This document shows, in pieces, positions 19,801-42,825 of a stretch of 64,000 nt of DNA. Below the pieces are notes generated by a model. The model saw only the letters and a list, made by a program, of their open reading frames with translations. It was not told the origin of the DNA and searched no databases. A program made the position numbers and the translations under genes. The stretch comes from Escherichia phage KKP 3715, in sequence record OR067834.1; one strand, written 5' to 3'. The stretch's first letter is position 1. Every line of letters starts with the position of its first letter.

Positions 19801-22800
19801 CCCCCACTAATGAGGATACCATCCAGGAAGTAGCCAAAACCAAAACAGAAATGGAAACAGTGTTCCCTGTCTATAACAATGAAAAGACACCGAACCAGTT
19901 CCTGAAAGCATTTACCTTACCAGAGGAACCTAAGTCTCGTACCGTTGGTTCTGAATCTCCTTTGGCTGATATTAAGCAAGCACTGTCTTCTGTTGCTCGC
20001 TTTGAGGCATTTACTCAAAAAGAAAATAACGTTCTCACAGGTGATGTGATTAAGCGTTATCAGGACTTAATGGACTTTGGGGAAACTCTGAAGACTACTT
20101 TGTCTGAACGATTGGCTAAGTTCCTTGCTAATAAGAACGTTGGTAAACGTTTTGCAGAAGGTACTGAAGCTAACCGTTGGGTAGGTGGCAAACTACTTAA
20201 TATCGTTGAACGAGATGGTGACACCTTTAAGTTTAATGACCAGTTGTTAGAGACTGCTGTACTTGCTGGTCTGCAATGGCGACTGACTGCTACACAGAAT
20301 GCTGCCATTAAAGACATGAAAGATGTGGCTGCTATTACTGGTGTAGAAGCATCTTTGTTACCAGAAGGTATTCTGGCTGAGTTTGAGAATGCCCAGACTC
20401 TGGTAGAAGCTACTAACTCACTGGCTCAGAAGATTGAATCCTACTGGGGTTTAAACCGTAATCCTAATGCACCACTTGGGTATACAAAAGGCATCCCAAT
20501 GGCAATGGCTACAGAGATTCTGTCTTCCCTCATTGAGATGGGTGAAGTTAAAGAATCTATGCTGGATGTGTCCGAGATTGACCCAGACTCCAATAAGACT
20601 GTCGGTCTGTATACTATTGAGAAGCTGGATGACAACGATGCCATTAACAAATTCCCTACTGCTATTGAGGAAGCTGTCCTCTTAGAACCAGAAGAGAAAA
20701 TGTATTTTGATGATGATATTCCTTCTGTGGCTCAAACTCAGTTGCGTAACCCTGCTGTTAAGAATACCCCAGAACAGAAAGCTGCACTTAAAGCTGAACA
20801 GGCTACTGAGTTCCGTGTACATATGCCGATGGTTAACTTCTATGAAGCATTAGGCCGTGACAACATTCTGGAACTGATGGGTGCTGGTACTCTTAATCCT
20901 GATTTGCTGAATAAAAACACTGCCAAATCTTTGGAAGGTAAAAACCTGTCCGTATCCATGGCATATGATTCTCTGTTCGGTGTAATTAATCAGATACGAG
21001 AACAAGAGAATGGTCTGGATACTCCTATTCACTACGGTTACAACATGACTCGTGTAGGTCGTATGCAGATGCTTGGTAAGAACAACCCACAATCCAGTAA
21101 ACTGGTTCGTGAAGCAATTCTGCCGACCTTCTCTACTATCGACTTGAGTAATGAAAACAGCCAAGCATTCTCTGACTTCCAGCTAGGACTGGCTCAGGCA
21201 TTAGGCATCAAGGTACATAAAATGTCACGTGAAGCTATGTCTGAAAATCTGACCAAAGCTCTGGAAGGCAATCTGAAGCCTGCTGTTGATATGATGGTTG
21301 AGTTTGATAAGGCTGGTTACTTACCTACTGATGCAGTAGATATTCTGAAGACTTCTCTGGGTGATAACAAATCCTTCGTGGCTCTCATGGCTCTGATGGA
21401 ATATGCCCGTTACCTGAACAGTGATGACCGTGCTAATTTTACTACTCCCTTGTACGTTGAAGCTGATGGTGTAACCAACGGCCCAATCAACGCAATGGTA
21501 TTAATGACTGGTGGTAAGTTCACGCCCGACTGGATTAAGAACACTGCCAAAGGTGGTTTGTTCTTTGGTCGTGCTGGTAAAACGATGAACGAACACTGTT
21601 CTATCGACGATAATGTTGACTTGTATGAAGCATCTACCAATGGTCTGCAACAAGCACTGAATGAGTTACGTACTACTTACCGTAACAACGTTCCGGTTAT
21701 GAGCCAGATGAATCATCTCCAGAAGTTAATGGACTTGTTCATTAAAGACTTTAATCTGAACGAAGACGGTACTCTGGACCTGAAACGTGGTATCGCTAAA
21801 AACCCACTGACCATTACCATCTATGGTTCTGGTGCACGTGGTATTGCTGGCAAGATGGTTAGTGCAATTACTGACACCATCTACGAACGCTTCAGTGACG
21901 TTCTGCAAGCACGGGCTGCTGACCCTAGCATTTCCCCAGCTATGGCAATGTTTGGTAAGGAGGCTGCGTCTGAGGCTGATGCTCAGGCTATGCTGGATAC
22001 TTTCCTTACTTCTATGGAAGCACTGACTGGCAATGTTCCAGTTATGCGTAAAGGTGAATTGTCTATTCAGCAAGTAGATGGTGCTCTGACTGGTAAGTTA
22101 GACCCTCAGAAGTTTACCGTATCCGGTAATGCTCTGAAGAACTTACAAGAGAACATGCTCCACCTGTTCGTTGAACCAATGCGTACCGGTATCCGGAATA
22201 CTGTTGGTGAAGGTCTGATGCACTCTACTGAGAATTTGCAGAAGGCTACCCAGATTCAATCTCTGGTATTGCAGGATATGTTCCAGCAAGCAGTACAGGC
22301 TAAGCTGGCAGAAAAAGAAAAAGACCCAACCTGGAAGAAGGGTGATTTCTTAACGCAGAAAGAACTGAATGAAATCCAGGAATCATTATCTCCACTGGCT
22401 CCAATGATTGAGACTGGCTCACAGACTTTCTACATTGCTGGCAGTGAGAATACTGATGTTGCTAACCAAGTACTGGCTACTAACTTAGATGATCGTATGC
22501 GTGTGCCAATGAGCATCTATGCTCCTTCACAGGCAGGTGTTGCAGGTATTCCATTTATGACCATCGGTACTGGTGATGGCATGATGATGCAGACCCTTTC
22601 TACTATGAAGGGTGCTCCGAAGAATACCCTGAAAATCTTTGATGGTATGAACATTGGTATCAGTGACATTACTGATGCAAGTCGTAAAGCTAACGAGGCT
22701 GTATACACTTCCTGGCAGGGGAACCCTATCAAGAATGTTTATGACTCCTACGCTAAGTTCATGAAGAATGTAGACTTCAGCAAACTGTCTGATGAAACCA

Positions 22801-41958: not shown

Positions 41959-41991
41959 TTAAATCTCCAGTAAAAAACCCTCCGTAGAGGG

Positions 41992-42450
41992 TTAGATGTA
42001 AGGGGTTAAATCTGGGGGAGTGTAGTCTTTCCCCTTCATGACTTTCTTGTTCTCGTTGAAGATAGGTTCCCCATCTTCGAACTTGGAATAGTTTGAGCGA
42101 TTGACTTCAGCCAATGCTCCGGGGACATTCATCCCAAGGAAAGTACCGACGCCAGTTGCTGTAACAATCTGGTCAGCAATGCTGTCCAAAAGTCCGATAC
42201 GGTCTTTCGCAACAATACCACCGTTTTGTTTAATACGGTCTGCTACGTAGTTAATAGCATCATGTAAGGAAGCAAGTATTTTAGCGTCATCTTTATTGAC
42301 ACTACTAATTGTCTCCAGCATTTCAGCTACTTCTTCCAGATGGCATCCAACTTGTGTACTGATGTTTTTACTCGTCGGATTCGGTACGGCTTTTAGAAAC
42401 CATTGCCGTGTGCTTTCCAGCGTACAAACGGATGAACTTGTCATGCTCAC
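41992..42450 (-). CDS. MazG-like nucleotide pyrophosphohydrolase (tentative)
   Basis: 152 aa; CHLEEVAEMLE and LLDSIADQIVTATGVG resemble the MazG/HisE helical core, with a C-terminal NRSNYSKF...KGKDYTPPDL tail. Overlaps the upstream HTH gene by about 80 nt. Confidence 0.35.
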   Translation of the reverse strand: MSMTSSSVCTLESTRQWFLKAVPNPTSKNISTQVGCHLEEVAEMLETISSVNKDDAKILASLHDAINYVADRIKQNGGIVAKDRIGLLDSIADQIVTATGVGTFLGMNVPGALAEVNRSNYSKFEDGEPIFNENKKVMKGKDYTPPDLTPYI

Positions 42451-42763
42451 TCTCTTGGTTAAGGTGGCGATTATTATATGCCTCCAGAATCAAGTCCCTT
42501 ACGTATGAACGAATCTCATAAGCAGGACCAACTTGCTCTGATAGCCAATCTGCCACATGGGTTGGTAATGGACGGAGTACATTCTCCATGAACGTCCGAC
42601 GTGTATCGGCTGGTTCAATGTTTAAAGAACGCAATCGCAAAGTAACCGTAGTGGGGTGAACCCCCAACGTCTTAGCGATAGTTGCGAGGGACAGACCAAC
42701 AGCATTCATACGAATGATGTCTTCATCAGTTGCTTTGCGATTAACTCTGTAAACTTTACTCAT
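42368..42763 (-). CDS. helix-turn-helix DNA-binding protein
   Basis: Start moved to the ATG at 42763 with GAGGAAA RBS (track start is a GTG inside a palindrome); HTH-like GLSLATIAKTLGVHPTTV. Confidence 0.45.
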   Translation of the reverse strand: MSKVYRVNRKATDEDIIRMNAVGLSLATIAKTLGVHPTTVTLRLRSLNIEPADTRRTFMENVLRPLPTHVADWLSEQVGPAYEIRSYVRDLILEAYNNRHLNQESEHDKFIRLYAGKHTAMVSKSRTESDE

Positions 42764-42785
42764 AGTACATTTCCTCTTCAAATTT

Positions 42786-42811
42786 ACCCTCACTTTATTA
42801 TAAGTGAGGGT
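42786..42811. promoter_or_regulatory. perfect 10-bp inverted repeat between rIIB-like and HTH genes (operator or RNA hairpin)
   Basis: accctcactt-tattat-aagtgagggt, about 23 nt upstream of the HTH gene start; no U-tract on either side. Confidence 0.3.
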
Positions 42812-42825
42812 ATTTGAACAGGCTA

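Follow-up and report, generated by a model that had tools for sequence, protein, structure and literature searches.

Comparative evidence that a 77-nucleotide overlap of the gp35 and gp36 genes in an N4-like Escherichia phage is inherited

The stretch of DNA analyzed (the window: 64,000 nucleotides of Escherichia phage KKP 3715, sequence record OR067834.1) is that of a Gamaleyavirus-type N4-like phage; the region considered here is 91% identical to Escherichia phage Bas96, its closest annotated relative, and 74% identical to phage N4, and its genes follow the order rIIB, gp35, gp36, Dda-like helicase. Two of these genes, on the minus strand as are the other features of the window described below, share part of their coding sequence. 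The homologue of N4 gp35, a small HTH-like protein of 131 amino acids, is encoded at 42368..42763 (ATG at 42763, stop codon TAA at 42370-42368), and the homologue of N4 gp36, a nucleotide pyrophosphohydrolase-like protein of 150 amino acids, at 41992..42444 (ATG at 42444). The 77 nt that they have in common from the conserved ATG (42368..42444) encode gp35 residues 107-131 plus the stop and gp36 residues 1-26 in different frames, with the gp36 ATG beginning one base into a gp35 codon (77 = 3 x 25 + 2, a 'phase 1' overlap). Maximal open reading frames run further upstream for both genes, to a GTG in each case (42368..42793, 141 amino acids, for gp35; 41992..42450, 152 amino acids, for gp36), and share 83 nt (42368..42450). 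The two ATG codons are the likely starts. The GTG at 42793 sits within a strong hairpin between rIIB and gp35, and a gp36 start at the GTG at 42450 was rejected as non-conserved (the codon is not a start codon in the aligned sequence of N4 or of Klebsiella phage KP8) and as almost devoid of Shine-Dalgarno (SD) complementarity (only -0.7 kcal/mol). An earlier reading of this DNA from its letters alone (the sequence-only reading) had described an overlap of about 80 nt between an HTH-regulator gene and a MazG-like gene, which agrees with the 77 nt (83 nt with the GTG) found here. It had also contrasted this overlap with couplings of 1-8 nt elsewhere in the genome; the overlap is indeed an outlier, but that range is a slight understatement, in that the other head-to-tail same-strand overlaps of Bas96 span 1-36 nt, with a nested spanin pair as the sole exception.

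Two hairpins bracket gp35 and gp36 as a two-gene unit. One of them, an intrinsic-terminator-like hairpin with a T-run (41976..41993), immediately follows the gp36 stop, ahead of the helicase gene, at the same place as a terminator annotated in PhAPEC5 and JWAlpha. The other lies in the 62-nt spacer between rIIB and gp35 (core 42785-42812, extended 42777-42818; UACCCUCACUU-AUAAUA-AAGUGAGGGUA) and is very stable (z -8.5, with -30.5 kcal/mol over an 81-nt context). Because no T-run follows it, it does not qualify as a canonical intrinsic terminator; it may mark an RNA end or a processing site, or be an element of a promoter. Upstream of the gp36 ATG, in a poorly conserved linker of gp35 (codons 102-106), is a purine-rich SD-like stretch, AAGAGAGTGAG (42446..42456), whose anti-SD duplex energy of -4.2 kcal/mol is matched by 19% of coding positions; the corresponding values are -6.2 kcal/mol for AAGGAA before N4 gp36, -6.0 kcal/mol for GAGGAA before the gp35 ATG in the window and -6.4 kcal/mol for the helicase gene. 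A comparable purine-rich stretch precedes the gp36 ATG in all of the lineages examined. Folding of the overlap region as a single sequence was not better than that of shuffled sequences (z -0.34), and 11 relatives, folded jointly over the region of the gp36 start, gave three pairs (-0.95 kcal/mol) and no covariation; a model in which RNA structure couples the two genes was dropped on these grounds.

The gp35 protein matches PHROG 6377, a family without an assigned function, from end to end (E = 5e-74), and its residues 1-100 are 90% identical to those of N4 gp35. Its AF2 model consists of a helical core (residues 10-100, pLDDT about 90), a low-confidence helix (residues 106-115, pLDDT 50-65) and a final segment that is predicted to be disordered (residues 116-131, pLDDT below 50); the predicted translation of the tail reads ...YAGKHTAMVSK / SRTESDE. 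A Foldseek search of this model against the PDB returned no match at E <= 0.001 and a weak local likeness to HTH domains, and the Pfam scores remain below the gathering cut-offs (HTH_38, 21.1 bits for a cut-off of 27; HTH_23, 20.2 bits for a cut-off of 24.6). The gp36 protein is 80% identical to N4 gp36 and matches PHROG 671, 'nucleotide pyrophosphohydrolase', over residues 8-150 (E = 3.5e-33), and PHROG 2144 and 12019, 'MazG-like', at E values of about 2e-4. It has no match in Pfam (E up to 1) or NCBIfam, and searches of PDB sequences, with gp36 alone or with profile A1, gave chance or very weak matches (the MazG-like DR2231 at E 0.2-0.8). The gp36 AF2 model is helical (H8-19, H25-44, H51-72 and H82-97) and was used for helix positions only, given its mean pLDDT of 61; with Foldseek, this low-confidence model had no match in the PDB at E <= 0.001. 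All-alpha NTP pyrophosphohydrolases carry a metal-binding EExxE motif and a later D/ExxD motif on helices. Five acidic residues of gp36 (E37, E38, E41, D87 and D91) do not vary in alignment A1 or A3, and the first three make up an E37-E38-x-x-E41 motif (42322..42336) that adjoins the overlap on its downstream side. These residues fit the acidic motifs of the all-alpha NTP pyrophosphohydrolases, and gp36 is a putative enzyme of this kind. The labels 'HTH' and 'MazG-like' are both plausible, then, and only partly backed: the first falls short of the Pfam cut-offs, and the second draws on PHROG names and the acidic motifs.

If gp36 in truth started downstream, at M42 (42321) or at a non-canonical codon, there would be no true overlap, and a non-ATG start further in was one of the explanations offered by the sequence-only reading. 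Public automated annotation often leans this way, with calls of 109 or 131 amino acids: the 109-residue proteins of clusters P0190-P0229 (window 41992-42321) start at the internal ATG of M42 (42319..42321; product MLETISS...), which gene callers favor, those of clusters P0215/P0240 (131 amino acids, start near window 42387) have non-ATG starts, and gp36 of KP8 (NC_048700) is annotated with an overlap of 20 nt because a non-conserved GTG was chosen over the conserved ATG upstream of it. Such calls run against the conservation of the residues that they omit. The gp36 ATG at 42444 is present in all of the relatives aligned, and the peptide that follows it (predicted translation, MTSSSVCTLESTR) belongs to a consensus encoded within the overlap, M-x-x-x-T-L-x-x-T-x-x-W-F-x-K-A-x-P-N-P-T-x-K-N, that is kept across the family; M1, W15, F16, A19 and P21 are invariant among the N4-like phages and a non-N4 Vibrio phage (alignment A1). 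Residues 8-26 are conserved even where nothing overlaps them, both in phages whose gp35 ends at the gp36 start and in Vibrio phage 1.135.O (42 kb), which keeps the gp36 N-terminus although it has no gp35. Moreover, from the gp35 stop to the EExxE motif the gp36 frame holds no ATG, GTG or TTG, and a start at M42 would delete the three invariant glutamates of that motif. Because the overlap-encoded N-terminus is conserved everywhere and the EExxE motif follows directly after it, a start further in is refuted for non-ATG codons and very unlikely for any codon; on the evidence of the alignments, the ATG at 42444 and the N-terminal residues are ancestral. The main value of the present analysis lies in annotation quality, given that gene callers penalize long overlaps and often truncate gp36, with loss of the EExxE motif in the 109-residue forms.

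The suspicion that so long an overlap might be an artifact was reasonable, because no real co-directional overlap above 60 bp was found in a study of 338 prokaryotic genomes (Palleja et al. 2008, PMC2478687), in which holD/rimI, at 32-56 bp, was the longest real case. An indel from sequencing or assembly that artificially extended one of the two frames would account for the unusual length, and among prokaryotic annotations long overlaps of co-directional genes are for the most part errors (PMC2478687). Comparison with related phages, which the sequence-only reading had proposed, speaks decisively to this point, in that the same overlap, with both frames homologous, occurs in many independent genomes. 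The annotation of N4 (EF056009) places gp35 at 20143-20538 and gp36 at 20462-20914, which is an overlap of 77 nt; Bas96, PhAPEC5 and AlfredRasser are annotated with the same 77 nt, and about 15 IMG/VR contigs have an identical arrangement. The pairs of N4, of other Gamaleyavirus phages and of Kaypoctavirus are orthologues of the pair in the window, with the same order, the same phase-1 overlap and the same stop, and the N4 pair differs from it in sequence divergence only. A sequencing frameshift is excluded, because the arrangement is identical in these independently sequenced genomes (N4, Bas96, PhAPEC5, AlfredRasser, KP8 and the IMG/VR contigs); the same frames and stop recur in dozens of genomes at 1-30% nucleotide divergence, and each protein aligns with its orthologues over the full length, so that we give an indel of any kind a vanishingly small chance. 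What establishes the overlap as real is this recurrence, with an unchanged stop position, in three genera whose genomes were sequenced independently, and the comparison shows it to be a genuine, ordinary, inherited feature that the public records of N4 and its relatives already annotate. Searches of the literature on N4 gp35/gp36, or on their overlap, returned nothing relevant, and no proteomic or ribosome-profiling data on the two proteins came to light in them. The nearest cellular likeness is holD/rimI, which is also a conserved head-to-tail overlap, with an exact length that is specific to the genus, and was also validated by a comparison of each protein with its orthologues; it differs in its length (32-56 bp, as against the 77 nt seen here and a maximum of 269 nt among GC-rich relatives of the window) and in its setting, long overlaps being commoner in phages than in cells.

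We surveyed 50 loci from GenBank and IMG/VR in which both genes were located. In the N4, Gamaleyavirus and KP8-type (Kaypoctavirus) loci (three genera), gp35 stops at the same position and overlaps gp36 by 77 nt, with two kinds of exception: the overlap lengthens to 86 nt in one lineage (L014/16/17), owing to a CAG at the codon that contributes the T of the TAA, and one allele is disrupted by an HNH gene. Further afield, the overlap is 131 nt in Burkholderia phage HN04 and 185-269 nt in Achromobacter phages, and most other N4-like phages (Schitoviridae) have 4-26 nt or a small gap. All of the overlaps of at least 8 nt (8, 11, 17, 26, 77, 86, 131, 185, 209 and 269 nt) are in the same phase, and the longest belong to GC-rich genomes. 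It is gp35 whose length varies. Among 424 homologues it is mostly about 100-114 amino acids long, with 130-134 amino acids only in close relatives of the window, 141 in Burkholderia phages and 152-195 in Achromobacter phages; in the Enquatrovirinae (the N4/G7C/KP8 subfamily) it has 131 amino acids and its stop lies 77 nt inside gp36, and in most N4-like phages, with about 100-110 amino acids, it ends at the gp36 start or no more than a few bases from it. Where gp35 is short, its stop falls 4-26 nt beyond the gp36 ATG or immediately ahead of it. The gp36 protein has about 150 amino acids in all close relatives. To judge from these lengths, the extended gene is gp35, and the pattern is that expected of 3' elongation, in which the end is set by the first stop in frame.

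This assignment places the gp35/gp36 pair beside several described classes of overlap. Without invoking selection, Fonseca et al. (2013, PMC3887535) modeled 3' elongation, and in their neutral model overlaps arise most often when the upstream gene is lengthened in this way, and long ones are mostly in phase 1. The pair resembles overlaps of this class (class iii of Palleja et al.; the neutral model of Fonseca et al.) in that gp35 is longer than most of its orthologues, gp36 is unchanged, the phase is 1, and the length is set by the first stop in frame and is greater in GC-rich genomes. Palleja et al., however, treated class iii as consisting of errors, whereas the gp35 extension has become fixed and is passed on throughout a subfamily, and its proximal motif may be under selection. 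Viral overprinting (reviewed in PMC8227390) offers a second likeness, in that 25 extra gp35 residues lie in an alternative frame of the older gp36 sequence and the younger gp35 segment is largely disordered (by prediction) and poorly conserved; the difference is that the gp35 case concerns a short C-terminal tail and not a new protein or domain. Classical coupling by an overlap of 1, 4 or 8 nt (ATGA-type) is the state of gp35/gp36 in Pseudomonas phage Arace01 (4 nt) and Erwinia phage Tellus (8 nt); in the window the junction is not of this termination-reinitiation type, the stop lying 77 nt past the gp36 start.

The length expected by chance was estimated by replacing gp36 codons with random synonymous ones, leaving the protein unchanged, and measuring how far the gp35 frame stays open. 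For the window, 23-25% of the trials left it open over 77 nt or more, and for N4, KP8 and L014 it was open as far as observed in 4-15% of the trials. In a single genome, the length of the overlap is unremarkable. Across genomes, the lineages with long overlaps each fall in the upper quartile of the simulation (P 0.04-0.25 each), those with short overlaps have the shortest possible ones, and the lengths are bimodal. This bimodality, the identical stop in three genera and the conservative replacements in the proximal part of the extension (described next) make some selection on the extension plausible.

How the two frames share the constraint was examined by comparing 15 distinct Enquatrovirinae sequences between clades, which provides few independent contrasts. 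The overlap falls into two parts. In the distal part (42368..42411), gp36 residues 12-26 (T-x-x-W-F-x-K-A-V-P-N-P-T-S-K) lie over gp35 residues 118-131, and divergence at gp36-frame positions 1, 2 and 3 (gp36 codons 12-25) is 0.17, 0.18 and 0.53; the wobble position is not suppressed, at 0.53 as compared with 0.54 in the gp35 core. The gp35 tail encoded there has 39% identity and a variable length, and natural gp35 forms of 118-123 amino acids truncate it. These data indicate that the distal 45 nt or so evolve under gp36 selection only, with the gp35 residues as a variable passenger that is predicted to be disordered. In the proximal part (42412..42444), gp35 H-D-K-F-I-R-L-Y-A-G-K lies over the variable gp36 leader (residues 1-11), and neither frame shows codon periodicity (gp36 codons 2-11). 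Replacements there are conservative for gp35 (mean BLOSUM62 +0.63, near the +0.74 of the gp35 core) and radical for gp36 (-0.79). The gp35 residues form a semi-conserved, ERFLKRY-type motif, E/D-R/K-F-L/I-x-x-Y-x-G, with a helix predicted at residues 106-115. Achromobacter phages have this motif as well, and so do variants in which gp35 stops shortly beyond it; the wobble T on which gp35 Y114 depends is retained although gp36 codon 7 is Cys or Asp in different Enquatrovirinae clades. Resting as it does on few independent contrasts, this evidence suggests, short of proof, that the first 11 or so added gp35 residues are functional.

A natural replacement of part of the overlap is found in L020 (IMGVR_UViG_2700988792_000001, of the Shigella phage pSb-1 type), in which an ORF for a 174-residue HNH homing endonuclease (L020:980-1504) lies within the gp35/gp36 overlap and uses the old gp36 ATG and first 12 codons. 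The gp35 of L020 retains ...EHDKFIRLYAGK and then ends early, at 123 amino acids, and its gp36 restarts with a different, shorter leader (MSDIITQTKKWF...); the HNH insertion is not found in the window. Because this allele replaces both of them, the last 13 residues of gp35 and the first 10 or so of gp36 are replaceable. The MSDIITQTKKWF... leader is common in public assemblies (P0129-P0139, P0232), and Mimir124 and NAN33P5 appear to resemble L020, with BLAST matches spread over about 1700 nt.

What this division of constraint implies for the origin of the overlap was weighed against three further readings. Selection for the overlap as a regulatory device, in which ribosomes translating gp35 couple or damp gp36 initiation and/or the gp35 tail is itself functional, would sit well with a stop position conserved across three genera, with the place of the long overlaps in the upper tail of the neutral simulations while the others are minimal, and with the proximal motif, whose conservative replacements, recurrence in the Achromobacter phages and shorter variants, and kept T of Y114 are described above. 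The unsuppressed gp36 wobble of the distal 45 nt and the variable, replaceable gp35 tail over it, predicted to be disordered, point the other way, as do the lack of conserved RNA structure at the gp36 start and the many N4-like phages that do without the extension; the contrasts that favor such a device come from few independent lineages, and we consider it unlikely. Of the sequence-only reading's third suggestion, a genuine regulatory arrangement, the word 'genuine' is upheld and the word 'regulatory' is not, most of the overlap evolving as it would under gp36 selection only. A programmed +1 ribosomal frameshift is the second reading: gp36 is in the +1 frame relative to gp35, and a shift would fuse the two proteins. 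By eye, however, the alignment contains no conserved slippery or stimulatory sequence, the region has no conserved RNA structure, gp36 keeps its own invariant ATG, and many relatives have other phases, stops or gaps between the genes, such that a fusion is not a feature of the family; we judge this extremely unlikely.

The third reading is narrower. The 11 or so proximal gp35 codons (H-D/E-K/R-F-I/L-x-x-Y-x-G) might encode a functional C-terminal helix, overprinted on a dispensable gp36 leader and selected in the N4/G7C/KP8 and Achromobacter-phage clades, and read-through might also tune the gp35:gp36 ratio; we hold this to be possible, if on balance doubtful. If true, it would make the proximal segment a small, datable case of coding sequence that arose de novo within a gene of the core replication module in a dsDNA phage, and the overlap would be among the longest validated co-directional overlaps outside small viruses. 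Our preferred reading, which we hold as a whole to be very probable, is that the gp35 3' extension is a genuine inherited overlap and probably, if less securely, for the most part a tolerated by-product of where the first stop falls, as opposed to a dedicated regulatory device. Under this preferred reading, gp35 and gp36 would probably be co-transcribed between the hairpin after rIIB and the terminator after gp36, and ribosomes on gp35 would pass over the ribosome-binding site of gp36 before terminating at the TAA at 42370-42368. A stop 77 nt past the start would be too far away for simple termination-reinitiation, so that gp36 would have to use its own initiation site; initiation would be independent, at the weak SD-like stretch and ATG of gp36. 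The length of the overlap would be set by the position of the first stop in the gp35 frame. That the gp35 tail is translated, and where exactly gp36 begins, are points that we infer from sequence. The pair is a clean, well-sampled case of a long same-strand overlap that arose by 3' extension and has a divided constraint, and it opens no new question.

Two features of Bas96 were noted in passing. An extra hypothetical ORF of 168 nt (Bas96_0051, L001:575-742) lies between rIIB and gp35 in Bas96 and is absent from the window (42764-42825), and it is because of this ORF that the BLAST match between the window and Bas96 comes in two pieces. Elsewhere in Bas96 (Bas96_0040/0041, L091:38380-39928), a gene for a Sak4-like annealing protein is annotated as two joined pieces with an endonuclease gene inside, an interruption that looks like an intron-like or intein-like insertion.
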